Source: a virus | Length of the DNA: 64,000 nucleotides | Strand: one strand, 5' to 3' | Virus genome (UHGV): UHGV-0038496 | Part shown: positions 5,074 through 40,886 of the stretch, piece by piece | How the letters are laid out: every line of letters starts with the position of its first letter | Numbering within the stretch: position 1 is the stretch's first letter | Made by a program: the position numbers and the translations under genes | The notes under the pieces: generated by a model | Told to the model about the DNA's origin: nothing | Databases searched by the model: none | Seen by the model: only the letters and a program-made list of their open reading frames with translations

Positions 5074-5714
5074 AAAAGAGAAATAGAAAACCTGTAGAGT
5101 GGTATTTGTTAGATTTTGACTTTAAATTCAGAGATGGTACATGGTGCAACTGTACTGAAGTTGTTGTAGGTGATAAATCTTACAAAGTTTTAACAAAAGC
5201 AGGTATGATATGGTTTAATATCAAACAGAGAACAAGGTTGGGGTCAGCTTACCAGAAAAATAAGCCCACTTATGCTGGAGTAAAAAATTGTTTTAAGGAT
5301 TTTCAAGATTTTTGTGATTTTTGCCAAACAGCCCCAGGGTATCACATGAAGGATAAGTATGGTAGAAACTATGCTTTAGATAAAGACATTCTTGATAGAA
5401 GTGGTAGAAAAGAGTATAGTAGAGACACCTGTTGCTTTGTTCCTTTGGATGTAAATAATATGTTGTTAACTAGAGGAGGTAAAAAGGCTTCAGACTGTCC
5501 ACCAGGTATATGTATGACTTCTTGTAAAAAATATGTAGTTCGTGATGGTCGTGGTAAAAGCAAAGTCTGTAATACGTTAGAGGAAGCCATAGCTGTTAAA
5601 AATAAGTTAAAAGCCGAGAGAATCTTGAGCAAGGTGGAAAGTGGTTATCTCGATTATGACAAAAGGATAGCTTTGCGTTTAACGGAGATAGCTGAAGATC
5701 TTCTAGGAGGGTAG
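5070..5714 (+). CDS. putative homing endonuclease-like protein (HNH/AP2-like)
   Basis: YALDKDIL ... CCFVPLDVNN segment plus AP2-like C-terminus; overlaps ligase stop. Confidence 0.4.
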   Translation: MKKRNRKPVEWYLLDFDFKFRDGTWCNCTEVVVGDKSYKVLTKAGMIWFNIKQRTRLGSAYQKNKPTYAGVKNCFKDFQDFCDFCQTAPGYHMKDKYGRNYALDKDILDRSGRKEYSRDTCCFVPLDVNNMLLTRGGKKASDCPPGICMTSCKKYVVRDGRGKSKVCNTLEEAIAVKNKLKAERILSKVESGYLDYDKRIALRLTEIAEDLLGG

Positions 5715-5718
5715 TCAA

Positions 5719-6219
5719 ATGGCTATAATAGATCGGATGCCGATGCTGCAAAAAGCATTGCTGTACATACTGATTTTCACGCTGTGTAACATTGCGGTTG
5801 GTGTTTGGGGATGGTTGGTTATCCCGATAACGACTTCTTGCTGTGTTGCTGCAAACATGTTTCTGCGTGACAACGTGATCCACCAGTATGGAGCATTCTG
5901 GTCTATAAGCATGGTGGCAATAGCTGGTATGGTTACAGCAGCTGTATCTCCTGTTGCCACACAGGCCGCGATAGGTTGCTTTGTGGCTGTTGTAGCAAGC
6001 TGCGGCGCTGCTAACATACTTTATAGATTCACAGATAACATAGTGGTTGTTAATATCTGCACTGCTGCTGTAGATGCATTGATATTCAGTCCGGTTGCAT
6101 TCCTGGAGATTATGCCAGGTGTTATGGCTATGCAGTTTGGGGTGAAATGCATTGCGGTTGTGCTGGTTGGGGTACTGATTGCTAAACTTGAACGAAGAGA
6201 GGCTCACAACAATGATTAA
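5719..6219 (+). CDS. multi-pass membrane protein
   Basis: Four to five hydrophobic helices. Confidence 0.45.
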   Translation: MAIIDRMPMLQKALLYILIFTLCNIAVGVWGWLVIPITTSCCVAANMFLRDNVIHQYGAFWSISMVAIAGMVTAAVSPVATQAAIGCFVAVVASCGAANILYRFTDNIVVVNICTAAVDALIFSPVAFLEIMPGVMAMQFGVKCIAVVLVGVLIAKLERREAHNND

Positions 6220-36373: not shown

Positions 36374-36883
36374 CACGTAACTCCTCTGCCCACACATCCA
36401 CAACAATCGCAAGCTCTGTTGCCTGAAGAGTCAGACAAACTTCAGCGATAAGTGCTTTAGCAAGTAGCTTTTAGCTAATTGTGCTGTTCACACATGCCTA
36501 CCAATTCTGGTAGGTATCTTCCGTATTGCAATTCCTTTCATCTCCTGCTATAATTTAGATCTTCTCTCTCTTTTCCAGAATACGCTTCTGGGTTTCTCTC
36601 TCTTCGGATTGAAGGAGATAGGGGAATATCGACTGAGTGAACAGTGTGAACATCCGAACGAATGGAGTATCGCACGAGCTTGTCGAGGTTGGAGAGCGGG
36701 AGCGGTTATAGCGACCAGCCAACTGCGATGTAATATAGGCAGTAAGGCACAATAACGGTAGAGTTTAAGTACCAGCGTTGTTGGGGAGACTAGAACCGGG
36801 GGTAGGGGGTTAGGCACATATAGATACTTAGCCTGCTAATTATTGCATAACTAAGTGATTATAATGGCTTCCTTGCCTGAAAA

Positions 36884-37594
36884 CTACATTCCATAATCCT
36901 CATCCTGCTTCTGAGCCATTCCATGATAAACTTCCCAGTACTTAGAGGCATACACCATATCCCATTCTTCCTGAGTCACCCATGCAATCATCCCACTGAG
37001 AATGTCTCTCACCTGTTCCCATTCTTCCCTTTGAGCAATAGCCTCTTCCTGTGTTTTGAATGCTTTCGCTATACGTTTTGTAACGGTATGACGAGTGACA
37101 GCAATACTTGCCCTCCAGTAAGTGTACGGGCCATTATGATATTCACTTACCCCACAAATACCAGACTTGTTAGTTTTGTGCATACCACTGTTAGTCATGT
37201 TCTGTAGGCGACTAACCAGTCTGAGATTGTCCAGGTGGTTGTTACCAGGGTCACGATCAATATGGTCAATCTCCATACCTTCCGGGATTGGACCATGATG
37301 CATCACCCAGATAATCCTTGCACCCTGGAGCAGAGTCTGTTTCCCGTCCACCAGCCAGCCTACAACATAGCGACCATCTTTAGCTGCATAGCTACCAGCA
37401 ACAGCCCCCTTCTTCGCATTAGAAGAACGAGTAAATTTATTCCTCAACACACCAAACTCAGCATCATAAACGAAATAGATGCTCCAGTCTGTAGTGTTAT
37501 ACACCTCCTCAAATTTCACCACAACTGTTTTGTTGTGATTGTTCTTCACAGCGTTATCATAATACGCCTGGGCATCAGCCTTGAACTCAAACAT
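36884..37594 (-). CDS. HNH homing endonuclease with AP2-like domain
   Basis: IDHIDRDPGNNHLDNLRLVSRLQN HNH motif; GICGVSEYHNGPYTYWRA AP2-like. Confidence 0.7.
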   Translation of the reverse strand: MFEFKADAQAYYDNAVKNNHNKTVVVKFEEVYNTTDWSIYFVYDAEFGVLRNKFTRSSNAKKGAVAGSYAAKDGRYVVGWLVDGKQTLLQGARIIWVMHHGPIPEGMEIDHIDRDPGNNHLDNLRLVSRLQNMTNSGMHKTNKSGICGVSEYHNGPYTYWRASIAVTRHTVTKRIAKAFKTQEEAIAQREEWEQVRDILSGMIAWVTQEEWDMVYASKYWEVYHGMAQKQDEDYGM

Positions 37595-38357
37595 CCTGAC
37601 CTCCGAAACCTTTTACCAGTATCGAAAATATACCACAAATGGCCTGAAGAGTCAAATCATTTCCCCTCTTTAAGCCTCTTTGATCCGATTAACATGCTAA
37701 TTATTCACAGAAAATACCCACACATAGCCTAAGCACTTGATTTCATTGTGAAATATGGCCTGAAGAGCACCACATATTTTAACATACCTTTAACATAATA
37801 CTTCCCCCGTATATACCTCCCCGCCCTGTCCAGGAGTCCCGTAAATACTGGCTTCCCCACAAATATCAGCACCACAAATATCACAGGCCTGAAGAGGGCC
37901 TCATTTTTTTTTATTCGCACCTCCCCCTCCCCCGTAGGGCGGTACATAGCCTGAAGAGGCATTCATACAATCAGGGGCAAATATCCCAGACTTACATTTG
38001 AGGTATTAGGCAGGCGAAACGCGACTCCTTCTCATAATGCGAATGATTCTCAAATATCACGGCTGCTTTCGTTATTGATAGCCTGGGCCTTGCAGCTATT
38101 GGCCTGGTTATTGCACGGTAGTTACTCACAGCGATTAATAGTTACACACAGAGATTATAGGGTTGACTGTTCACGCCCTCATTGTGTGGGGTTGAATAAT
38201 AACATGCGTTACAGTTTTCCACAGGAGCATTTAAGTTGATGATAAGCCTTCTCATTTGGGAATAATTATTACTTCGTATTGTTCATCATACGTAACACCA
38301 GTTATACGCACTTATGATCATCTGTACAGTAGTTCCACACAAAGGTAGGACACTGGG

Positions 38358-38397
38358 TTATCCACAGGTGGCAGGGTTATCCACAGACTTATCCACA
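38358..38397 (+). promoter_or_regulatory. cluster of three perfect DnaA boxes (TTATCCACA)
   Basis: TTATCCACA at 38358-38366, 38377-38385 and 38389-38397, same orientation. Confidence 0.6.
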
Positions 38398-39410
38398 GCT
38401 CACGTATGACGCTACGCGGAATAATCACAGGTCAAACGACAGGAAACGAAAGGAAACGAAAACAATCGAAAGAAGATTAATTGCGGTTTATTACAGCACG
38501 AAAAGATTAATCATTGCAATAGTTAGCCTGCTATTAATTATATTTACAGGGGTGACAGTTACGTCATGTTACAGATGACTGGGCATCATATTGCACTGGC
38601 ACACTACCATACCAGCTATATAACATGCCCCACAGATGCATCTTATAACTGGTCTGACCACTTACGCATAAAAAATCGTTGACAAAAAGAGCGAAATTTG
38701 TTAGGCATACTTTCCCCATACTTCGGTCATACTCCCCCCACAGTTTACAGTTTGAAAAGCCCATAATCACACCTCAGGCCTCTGGCCTTCGAGGTAACGC
38801 AGTTACGAGACACGCATTGAAATCATAACATCCCATGACTGTTTACACAGCGTAGCACTGAGGCCCCGCCGATTTTACACATCTGACAGTTTACACGCAT
38901 GACAGTTTACGCCTTGATTTACAAGGAAATAGTTGCGACATGTAACTACCGCAAGACGGTATAGTTGCGCCGTGTTATCGTTGCATGTGTAACTTTACCG
39001 TGAAGCCATAGGCTGAATGTGTAACATTACTTCAGCGTTATTGTCACAGATCTGATAGTTTGCACTCTACTCTTAACCAGTGTTATAGTAACACCTGTTA
39101 CTACTACTTTTGACATAATAACGCTGGGAAAACGTAACCGTTTTTGATTATTAACATGTAATAACCCAGCGTTACCATAACAATTTTTATTGTTATTGGA
39201 GGACATAATAACGCTGAGGATTATTACATGATAATTTATGATATAATTTCGCTGGCTATGCCAGGTGGACTACGTCCACCCCGTAGGGCGTTATCATAAA
39301 TTAGCGAGATAATAATGCTGGATAATAACACGGGGGTGTTATTGTCACTCAGCGTTATTATGTCGCTCCCTCCGGTCGCGCCATGTTATCGTTGCATAAT
39401 GTGATTATTG

Positions 39411-39545
39411 CATTCGCAAATTATTATTTATCTTATTTTACTTTATGCAATTTATATATTTTCATTGATTGTAATTTTATTTATTTTATATTTTATTGTA
39501 TCTCATAATCTAATTATATTACTAATATTATACTATATAGATTAT
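39411..39545. other. AT-rich tract (candidate DNA unwinding element)
   Basis: About 130 bp of very high A+T with short ATTTTAT-type repeats. Confidence 0.45.
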
Positions 39546-40092
39546 TGAGATACAGAATAATCACCGCCTGAAAGTATATTAATCCCACAGCAGAATAGTC
39601 ACTGCATGAAATAATGTGGGGTGGGATAGTCACACCTCGGCATGACTGCCTTGCGGAATAATCACCATATTTACCACACCTGCCAGGTTGTTGAGAATAT
39701 TTCTCATATGTTAGCTATGCACTAATATTGCATAATTAAAACATACCTATCAGATGCATCTTATCGTGACGCTACGTGAAAAATAGAATTTTGCGCCTAT
39801 AGTTATACCCGATTTTTCAAAAAATGGACTTTATAACTCACTGTTTTATAAAGATTTATAGTTGTTGACACAGCCATATAAAATGTGCATCAGCCGAAAA
39901 GTGTGAGATACTTCACAAAATGCCCTACATTTGACAGCCGAAAACTGAAAAAACTTAAAAACTATGTATGCAAATACAGCTATTTTACTGTGTGGTTAAT
40001 TTTTAGGCATTTTATTTTATGCATTGTTTGAATACCGGATTCACAGCTTGCCCATGAAGCTACGCTGAATAAATCACTATATTACAGACAAC

Positions 40093-40115
40093 AAAAAGGC
40101 CGCTTATTTGCGGCC
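40093..40115 (-). terminator. rho-independent terminator (minus strand)
   Basis: GGCCGC-ttattt-GCGGCC hairpin with T-run on minus strand; directly after stop of 40137-40556. Confidence 0.6.
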
Positions 40116-40136
40116 CCTTATTATTTCGTTGATAAA

Positions 40137-40556
40137 TTATAGCGCTTCGTATATTTCATAGATTCGATTTGCAAGGTCGTTACGGTAGCGGAATTTTTCG
40201 TCACGCTTGATCATTAAATCTTTATAGCCATACTCCTTAAGCACTTCATTAACTTTATGGCGGCATACCTGCATATTGTCCTGAGCGTCACCAATAAACT
40301 TGTTGCTGTGGTGCATTGCTTTAATTTCTTCTTCCAGGACCAGGGCAACTACCCGGACCGGATCAAGCTGGTAGGCGTTAACATCCATGCGGCACTGTAG
40401 GCGGCTTTTAACATCGTTTACCGGATATACTGCAACCTCTTCCCCGTCCACGTTGACAATAACCAGCTTGTCGCCGATCTCGAATCCTTTAGCCGCTGGA
40501 CCGTGGCAAAAAGCGTTATCAAAACTATATGCGGGATTGTTTGATTCAATGTTCAT
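40137..40556 (-). CDS. hypothetical protein
   Basis: First ORF of the minus-strand array; terminator downstream. Confidence 0.45.
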   Translation of the reverse strand: MNIESNNPAYSFDNAFCHGPAAKGFEIGDKLVIVNVDGEEVAVYPVNDVKSRLQCRMDVNAYQLDPVRVVALVLEEEIKAMHHSNKFIGDAQDNMQVCRHKVNEVLKEYGYKDLMIKRDEKFRYRNDLANRIYEIYEAL

Positions 40557-40613
40557 GGTGTTTTCCTCTTCGTTGTGTCTTAGTTGGGCCTTTCGGCCCT
40601 TGCAATTATCTTA

Positions 40614-40886
40614 TTACTTGATGCGGCAAAATTCAAGCGTTTTTAATTGATAATCTTCTTCGGCTTGCATCACCACGCAATTGATCATGTGGTCGGCGTT
40701 ATCGAATCCACATTTCACAGCGAAATCATCGGCCCCGCCTTTGTGGTCATGTTCTGCGTTCATAGCCTCTACAAAATGGTACTCAAGATTATTCAAGTAA
40801 GGGCTAGATGTGCCGTCTTCTTTTTCAATAAGATCCCAGATAGCATTAAAACGTTTTTCAGTCGCCTTTTTAATCCACCCTTTCAT
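40614..40886 (-). CDS. hypothetical protein
   Basis: ORF in minus-strand array. Confidence 0.4.
   Translation of the reverse strand: MKGWIKKATEKRFNAIWDLIEKEDGTSSPYLNNLEYHFVEAMNAEHDHKGGADDFAVKCGFDNADHMINCVVMQAEEDYQLKTLEFCRIK

Follow-up and report, generated by a model that had tools for sequence, protein, structure and literature searches.

What is the function of the long non-coding interval that is carried by rV5-like phages and that appears in the rV5 genome paper as an unexplained grey 'non-coding' box? The question was addressed with a 64,000-nucleotide stretch of the virus genome UHGV-0038496 (the window, to which all coordinates refer unless another record is named), in which the interval from 37595 to 40136 is free of open reading frames (ORFs) and dense in repeats. 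An earlier note had likened this interval to a replication origin or to the injection-pause region of T5-type genomes, and had listed a genome terminus as something to be checked by read pile-up. The analysis identifies the genome terminus as the best-supported identity of the region, which probably represents a concatemer junction. In this reading the phage, an rV5-like myovirus, packages DNA of unit length that carries short exact direct terminal repeats (DTRs), as in T7-type packaging. The short-DTR concatemer junction is already known as a kind of element and DTRs of 328–514 bp are a known trait of the family; the literature searched held no description that links the rV5 box to genome ends, and none of its anatomy or of the genome ends in the clade of the window phage.

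On sequence grounds, the window phage is classified as an rV5-like myovirus. One 417-amino-acid (aa) protein encoded in the window shares 63% identity with proteins of rV5-type phages, and a 22-kb query found its best DNA matches in Vequintavirus genomes (about 83% identity over about 7% of the query). The gene that flanks the region on the right (40137–40556, minus strand, 139 aa) is a homolog of rV5 gp159 with 84.6% DNA identity to the rV5 gene; the protein identity is 90–95% in 129 out of 143 matching records and 80–90% in a further 13 (Vequintavirus and Phapecoctavirus). The region itself is syntenic with positions 104014–106617 of rV5 (NC_011041), and the conserved blocks are collinear between the two at only about 75% sequence identity. 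A megablast search of the region against phage and plasmid collections returned no match and a distant blastn search aligned two islands and nothing more. Three full-length relatives with 80–86% identity (loci L004, L016, and L019) were obtained from a metagenome motif scan and a protein-anchored IMG/VR scan. Together with the window they form a clade for which the phage collection searched contained no close record and which, judged by these comparisons, probably constitutes an undescribed relative of Vequintavirus at the genus level. All conservation values for the window clade are based on a four-way alignment of the window with these three loci.

The physical ends of the genome are known for several relatives. 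Korf et al. linearised genomes where most PacBio reads abruptly ended and reported terminal redundancies of 458 bp in the Vequintavirus phages HdK5 and EdH4 and of 328 bp in the phAPEC8-like phage Schickermooser. The HdK5 record (MK373780) begins and ends with the same 459 nt, and each copy falls within the homologous non-coding region, giving the order rightward genes, 979 nt of non-coding DNA, 459-bp DTR, about 1045 nt of non-coding DNA and leftward genes. Other records were searched with the HdK5 DTR as query, with the second matching place inspected only in HdK5. The DTR was found at record positions 1–459 in EdH4, Gotham (MT682716, where it is annotated as a repeat_region) and ECP2309, and at positions 1–458 in YN3, with two matching places in each of these four records; CM1 also contains two, its listed place being internal. 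Among the records with a single copy, bov10K2 begins exactly at the left boundary, and the right boundary is exactly the first position of Pr121LW and the last of ECP2303. Overall, identical DTR boundaries (458–459 bp) were found in at least eight Vequintavirus GenBank records. Since an arbitrary linearisation matches a given nucleotide about once in 136,000, these agreements are independent confirmations of fixed ends. Both ends of the virion DNA in Vequintavirus lie inside the homologous non-coding region, where they define a DTR of 458–459 bp. Similar repeats have been described in further phages of the group: a 514-bp DTR of 'T7 type' was assigned to KPP-1 from twofold coverage and PhageTerm, and a 342-bp DTR was reported for the phi92-like phage BME3, in whose record 1482 gene-free nt precede the first gene, which is leftward.

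The HdK5 boundaries could be transferred to the window by two gapless alignments (A4 for the left end, A5 for the right end), which place a predicted repeat and two boundary islands as follows.

38009–38702 (each boundary ±5 nt), no strand: predicted direct terminal repeat of about 694 bp, from gapless alignments A4 and A5 with the HdK5 DTR.
37985–38060, no strand: near-invariant island at the predicted left DTR boundary, with TTAGGCA at 38006–38012 and ATTCTCAAATATC at 38046–38058, from alignment A4.
38636–38712, no strand: near-invariant island at the predicted right DTR boundary, with TTGACAAAAAGAGCGAAATTTGT and with TTAGGCA at 38701–38707, from alignment A5.

At the left end, HdK5 CCA/GGCGGACGAAAT (the slash marks the boundary) pairs with TTA/GGCAGGCGAAAC of the window, leading to position 38009, and at the right end HdK5 AAACTTGTC/TGACA pairs with AAATTTGTT/AGGCA, leading to position 38702. 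Conservation within the window clade peaks at both boundaries. It is 0.97 at 38010–38059, with an indel hot spot immediately upstream of the left boundary. It is 0.95 at 38660–38709 and drops to 0.23–0.43 just outside the right boundary; the same sharp drop is found just outside the experimentally defined right boundary of HdK5 among eight Vequintavirus genomes. The motif TTAGGCA occurs six times on the plus strand of the 64 kb, and two of the six copies coincide with the two predicted boundaries. It is also present at both boundaries in L004, L016, and L019, with spacings of 672–705 nt. Contig ends were considered as a marker of the physical ends in the window clade and discarded as uninformative, IMG/VR and metagenome contigs breaking elsewhere.

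Two of the relatives carry duplications of boundary motifs. In L016, the right-boundary motif TTTGTTAGGCATAC is duplicated 46 nt apart at 6075–6140 (in window orientation, just right of the predicted DTR), and L004 contains TTAGGCATACTT twice in tandem. Such duplications suggest slippage or recombination at a cut site.

The absence of genes from the region was tested in several ways. The interval 37595–40136, which extends from the start codon of an HNH endonuclease gene to the stop codon of the 139-aa gene, both leftward, is the largest ORF-free interval of the window at thresholds of 60, 80, and 100 aa; the gap left uncovered by ORFs of at least 80 aa measures 2404 nt (37733–40136) compared with 1059 nt for the runner-up. 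An independent gene call on an identical contig (L025, ENA metagenome contig ERZ27287477 k141_617802, 140,706 bp, identical to the window over the 8.4 kb compared) leaves the DNA from the gp159 homolog to the HNH gene empty. Fourteen ORFs of 30–77 aa were followed in L004, L016, and L019 and none was open in all three, except for one 37-aa frame which has no Shine–Dalgarno sequence. The longest candidate, a 77-aa ORF at 37729–37962 that crosses copies of the repeat GCCTGAAGAG, was rejected because each of the three relatives carries frame-breaking indels. A tblastx comparison with the rV5 counterpart gave matches in every frame and on both strands, indicating conservation at the nucleotide level rather than coding. 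Hidden genes were rejected on the basis of the unconserved ORFs and the frame-independent matches. The claims of the earlier note that this is the largest non-coding stretch of the window, and that it is a conserved cis-acting hub rather than a set of unannotated genes, were thereby borne out. Its placement between converging gene blocks needs correction: a leftward block closed by a terminator lies on the right, but the left neighbour is the leftward HNH gene and not the end of the rightward block. Gene-free DNA continues to the left of the HNH gene as far as about 36374; the non-coding region is therefore larger than first stated and the HNH gene has the appearance of an insertion.

Searches for other kinds of content gave little. 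Rfam at a permissive threshold and ARAGORN identified no RNA or tRNA within the region, and Rfam returned just sub-threshold noise at the terminator of the rV5 counterpart. Sigma-70-like promoter matches are not enriched (11 compared with 14.7 expected) and a reading of the region as a promoter cluster was rejected on this count. No relevant Chi sites were found near the predicted ends. As a separate observation, GATC sites are depleted in 37595–40136 (3 compared with about 12 expected from the window-wide density).

The DNA on both sides of the predicted DTR is occupied by short repeats. The left side carries the GCCTGAAGAG repeat family.

37642–37958, plus strand: array of four perfect GCCTGAAGAG copies in one orientation, at 37642, 37758, 37887, and 37949.
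36421–36430, plus strand: outlying first GCCTGAAGAG copy in the gene-free DNA left of the HNH gene, with a homologous copy in L004 and L016.
37885–37909, plus strand: intrinsic terminator-like hairpin (AGGCCTGAAGAGGGCCT followed by T9), formed by one GCCTGAAGAG copy and closing rightward transcription.

All five perfect copies of GCCTGAAGAG in the 64 kb are on the plus strand and within 36421–37958, and the last copy lies about 50 nt ahead of the predicted left boundary. The position and orientation of the corresponding CCTGAAGAG array are conserved in rV5, L005, L013, L004, L016, and L019. The terminator-like hairpin is conserved in all four members of the window clade.

The right side is longer and contains several distinct elements between the DTR and the gp159 homolog.

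38703–38960, plus strand: hypervariable stretch directly outside the DTR, with CATACTT units at 38706–38733 and TGAC(A/T)GTTTAC(A/G)C at 38836, 38884, and 38900.
38964–39397, plus strand: iteron/palindrome module, bracketed by a 23-nt direct repeat at 38964–38986 and 39375–39397.
39396–39545, no strand: extreme AT-rich tract with 14% GC, a candidate DNA-unwinding element.
39555–39665, plus strand: three GAATA(A/G)TCAC copies (39555, 39593, and 39656; a further copy lies at 38419), a motif that forms the 3' end of a small insertion family, with a difference in unit number in L004.
39690–39900 (core 39763–39893), no strand: most conserved non-coding block, containing TATAGTTATACCCGATTTTTCA and TTGTTGACA...ATGTGCATCA.
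40094–40119, no strand: bidirectional terminator-like hairpin, conserved, closing the leftward block after the gp159 homolog.

The number of short units in the hypervariable stretch varies between close relatives. The TGAC(A/T)GTTTAC(A/G)C unit is present in 3–4 copies in the window clade compared with about 10 copies of GTTTACA in rV5, and the rV5 clade carries GACAYAAT units in place of the CATACTT type. Within the iteron/palindrome module, the 15-bp sequence GACATAATAACGCTG occurs in three perfect and three degenerate copies, direct and inverted, between 39033 and 39364; the window contains eight matches at three or fewer mismatches, a number that was not reached by any shuffle. A nested palindrome spans 39202–39364 (fold z = −3.9 for 39195–39340) and the bracketing repeat is GCGCC(A/G)TGTTATCGTTGCAT (20–23 nt, at 38964 and 39375). 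Positions 39310–39409 are 96–100% conserved and positions 38710–39310 are poorly conserved. The same module layout is found in rV5 and HdK5 with other repeat sequences (GCCATGCCATTCGTTTGCAT twice, and GACATAATATAAAAGCAG together with its complement). With the layout kept and the repeat sequences changed together, the copies co-vary as expected for the sites of a co-evolving binding protein. For an inverted repeat, such covariation cannot separate RNA pairing from protein-binding sites, and the extra direct copies favour binding sites.

The AT-rich tract has the lowest GC content of the 64 kb whether windows of 100, 150, or 200 nt are used (about 6 SD below the mean; the next lowest value is 26%) and a sequence conservation of 0.91–0.97 among the four relatives. 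The minimum GC content per 100 nt in the HdK5 region is 26%, and the AT-rich tract of Schickermooser lies within its DTR. The block at 39690–39900 is conserved at 0.93–0.99 in the clade, which exceeds that of the neighbouring gp159 coding sequence (39293–40800 shares about 89% identity with L004), and is among the parts that blastn still aligns with rV5-type phages.

The predicted DTR itself contains one conspicuous feature.

38358–38397, plus strand: three perfect DnaA boxes (TTATCCACA) in direct orientation, within the predicted DTR.

The whole window contains four perfect copies of TTATCCACA compared with 0.78 expected, and three of the four are those in the DTR. Two of the three are unchanged throughout the four-member clade despite divergence of the flanking DNA, and no perfect DnaA box was found in HdK5 or Schickermooser. 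The neighbouring stretch 38410–38460 is poorly conserved, and the third box of the window is completed by the insertion of a mini-element. All repeat families named in the earlier note proved to be present and non-random, and these families, the DnaA boxes, and the AT-rich tract that it had listed all exceed chance.

The following packaging scheme is proposed. Replicated concatemers would carry one copy of the about 694-bp DTR per junction, and the terminase would cut or nick at both conserved boundary islands, each bearing TTAGGCA. The repeat would be duplicated by strand-displacement synthesis such that every virion DNA starts and ends with the DTR; duplication of the repeat during packaging is the general mechanism in T7-like phages. 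The left end of the virion DNA would then comprise the DTR, the variable short-unit arrays, the iteron/palindrome module, the AT tract, and the 3' end of the leftward gene block, and the right end would comprise the rightward genes, a promoter and a candidate non-coding RNA (both described below), the HNH gene, the GCCTGAAGAG array, and the DTR. More tentatively, the one-sided and uniformly oriented GCCTGAAGAG array may be the element recognized by the terminase (pac- or cosB-like), the palindrome/iteron module and the 14%-GC tract may serve replication initiation or hairpin-primed duplication of the repeat, and the terminators on both sides may insulate the junction from the converging transcription units. 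Packaging specificity would reside in DNA near the ends, as it does in T3 and T7, where it is found within the terminal 5% of the genome. Repeat arrays flank the DTR in both the window clade and the rV5 clade, with different sequences and the same layout.

Several points weigh against the identification of the region as a packaging junction. The DTR and the exact ends are predicted for this phage by homology, its source being a metagenome contig, and no related metagenome contig has its end at a predicted boundary. The predicted length of 694 bp exceeds every DTR measured in the group (328–514 bp). The CCTGAAGAG/GCCTGAAGAG motif is absent from phAPEC8-type loci, though phAPEC8-type phages also have DTRs; the DnaA boxes have no role in the packaging scheme; and the GCCTGAAGAG array, iterons, palindrome, and AT tract have putative roles. 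Finally, one Vequintavirus paper reports PhageTerm output as headful packaging, a result that was given lower weight than the evidence from read ends and database records.

Three other explanations of the region were weighed. The main function might be that of a replication origin, where phage- or host-encoded initiators bind the iterons and DnaA boxes, open the AT tract, and start bidirectional replication; this is possible but doubtful. What stood of the earlier comparison with an origin is the arrangement in the right arm, in which six GACATAATAACGCTG-like sites in both orientations, bracketed by the 23-nt direct repeat, directly adjoin the most AT-rich 150 nt of the window. This module is 91–100% conserved in the four relatives, its copies co-vary between the clades in the manner of protein-binding sites, and the three perfect DnaA boxes exceed the 0.78 expected for the whole window. 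Other points weigh against it: the DnaA boxes are located inside the predicted DTR at a distance of about 1 kb from the AT tract, neither the boxes nor the extreme AT tract is present in rV5 and HdK5, and in Schickermooser the boxes are missing and the AT-rich tract is part of the DTR. Furthermore, no initiator gene lies in or beside the region (the neighbours are the HNH gene and a small hypothetical gene), the genes converge on the region and do not diverge from it, and a packaging site would be just as likely to contain iterons and palindromes. GC skew was rejected as an origin marker because it is confounded by the switch in gene orientation, from which the skew change is inseparable; the rV5 genome paper likewise describes a skew change that coincides with the change in transcription direction. 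An origin can coexist with a terminus, and for the right arm (38964–39665) this is plausible without being exclusive. [quoted passage not shown] The same reading would have the junction-specific hairpin mini-elements and the promoter-driven structured RNA described below as functional parts and not debris.

A hyperplastic non-coding 'graveyard' or RNA locus, in which the products of gene decay, homing-endonuclease traffic, and small mobile hairpins built up at the meeting of two transcription-unit ends and selection acted on small RNAs or promoters only, would account for the HNH gene inserted in the region, the hairpin mini-elements that are gained and lost between close relatives, the promoter-driven candidate RNA in the left extension, and the poor conservation of 38410–38460 and 38710–39310. 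It is improbable given that several blocks (0.93–1.00) are more conserved than the neighbouring gp159 coding sequence, that the layout is collinear across clades at only about 75% sequence identity, that physical ends map to the region in relatives, and that 37595–40136 contains no Rfam or tRNA match. The T5-type injection stop raised in the earlier note, a structured non-coding block that halts DNA entry after the first-step-transfer segment, shares its surface features with the region and fails in its defining context. The paper on BF23 describes long non-coding DNA with direct and inverted repeats and DnaA boxes at the border of the first-step-transfer and second-step-transfer DNA of T5 and BF23, for which a role as an injection stop was proposed; the window has comparable DNA beside the border of its predicted terminal repeat. 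However, the predicted repeat is about 0.7 kb long and gene-free compared with about 10 kb with pre-early genes in T5, and the stretch from either predicted end to the repeat-dense DNA offers no gene for expression during a pause. The phage also belongs to the rV5-like myoviruses and not to the Demerecviridae, and the role in T5 itself is a proposal. An injection stop of this type is the most remote of the explanations and very improbable.

The remaining features of the region concern mobile sequences and the left extension. Two hairpin-forming insertion families (47 nt and about 33 nt) come and go at junction sites among phages that are 80–86% identical, and two of the insertions in the window are as follows.

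[quoted passage not shown]
40041–40073, plus strand: 33-nt insertion (TCACAGCTTGCCCATGAAGCTACGCTGAATAAA) of the same mini-element family as the GAATAATCAC copies, absent at this site in L004, L016, and L019.

The 47-nt element is present in the window and in L016 with stem-preserving changes and is absent from L004 and L019. In L016 (where two copies are in tandem) and in L019, the 33-nt family is represented elsewhere in the non-coding DNA. The sequence GAATAATCAC and its variants give 14 matches compared with 5.6 expected, and the GAATAATCAC 'repeat' corresponds to the 3' terminus of the 33-nt insertions. Overall, mini-element sites were located at 39246–39292, 40041–40073, and about 38400–38428 in the window, at 5212–5281 and about 6900 in L016, and at about 1500 in L019; no mini-element was found elsewhere in the 64-kb window, where they are confined to the non-coding region.

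The left extension contains the HNH gene, two promoter-like sites, and a candidate RNA.

36884–37594, minus strand: HNH endonuclease gene (236 aa, PF13392), inserted in the non-coding region.
37627–37655, minus strand: promoter-like site of the HNH gene (TTGACT-17-TATATT), upstream of the gene.
36526–36554, plus strand: near-consensus sigma-70 promoter-like site (TTGCAA-17-TATAAT with TG), outside 37595–40136 and inside the extended non-coding region.
36562–36815, plus strand: candidate structured non-coding RNA, downstream of the promoter-like site at 36526–36554.

L004, L016, and L019 also carry the HNH gene, which rV5 lacks at the corresponding place; the gene is free-standing, and its product is about 40% identical to the products of HNH genes in many unrelated phages. 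The promoter-like site at 36526–36554 has a counterpart in rV5 (about L003 2548–2577) with TTGACA, a spacer of about 16–17 nt as judged by eye, and TAAAAT, and about 250 nt following the site align with rV5 at about 75%. RNAalifold predicted 48 pairs for 36562–36815, of which 11 show compensatory double changes between the two clades, and 98% of the cells were paired compared with 51–59% in slid controls. The counterpart of the candidate RNA in HdK5 (nt 101–400) is 98–100% conserved among eight Vequintavirus genomes. No Rfam match was found for 36562–36815, which is a candidate for a new phage non-coding RNA.

On the other side of the region, the gp159 homolog is far more conserved than the other window protein compared with rV5 (63% identical). 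It has been deposited under varying names (hypothetical, 'DNA translocase', and 'Rel homology domain') and is apparently missing from HdK5 and Gotham.

With the identification as a packaging junction, the 2.5-kb 'non-coding' box of the rV5-like phages acquires a likely function; these phages are commonly isolated and considered for therapy. For an uncultured relative it provides predictions at the nucleotide level, with ends at about 38009 and 38702 and TTAGGCA at both cuts. The true ends of a genome matter for its deposition, for comparative alignment, for phage engineering and rebooting, and for the question of which DNA enters the cell first. Smaller questions are raised by the DnaA boxes inside the repeat and by the role of the conserved right arm, including the block at 39690–39900. 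The clade-specific DnaA boxes in the terminal repeat parallel the unexplained DnaA boxes near the T5 repeat border, and the locus makes that question approachable.

Among the known systems, the non-coding region and DTR of Vequintavirus (rV5, HdK5, and Gotham) are the direct homolog of the region, flanked likewise by a gp159 homolog and by gene blocks that converge on it. Common to the two, in collinear order, are the CCTGAAGAG array, the boundary motifs ATTCTCAAATATC and TTGACAAAGAG, an array of the GTTTACA type, a bracketed palindrome, and the block at 39763–39893. They differ in that blastn aligns just about 8–9% of the region (identity about 74%) and in the length of the DTR, which is 459 bp in Vequintavirus compared with 694 bp predicted here. 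The window clade has in addition the HNH gene, two to three perfect DnaA boxes in the DTR, the 14%-GC tract, and repeat sequences of its own.

The junctions of T7 and T3 are similar in having a short exact DTR that is present once per junction and duplicated at packaging, as predicted for the window phage. At the T7 junction, cis-acting packaging signals and short repeat arrays lie beside the terminal repeat, and duplication of the repeat has been modelled through a hairpin intermediate. Short-repeat arrays that directly adjoin the repeat, and an inverted repeat nearby, are also found in the window, a likeness that serves as a lead and not as a test. In contrast to T7, the window phage is a myovirus of about 140 kb without a phage RNA polymerase, and the link between transcription pausing and packaging in T7 therefore cannot apply as such. 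The junction described here also lies between converging gene blocks and measures 2.5–3.7 kb compared with a few hundred bp in T7. T5 and BF23 resemble the window in the non-coding, repeat-dense DNA with DnaA boxes at the border of a terminal repeat, and differ in the size and gene content of that repeat and in belonging to an unrelated phage family. The region resembles iteron origins (lambda ori, P1 oriR, and plasmid oriV) in having multiple copies of a 15-bp site beside an AT-rich tract and DnaA boxes in the vicinity. The window differs from these origins in having no overlapping or adjacent initiator gene, sites of mixed orientation that form a large palindrome, DnaA boxes at a distance of 1 kb, and features that are not conserved outside the window clade.

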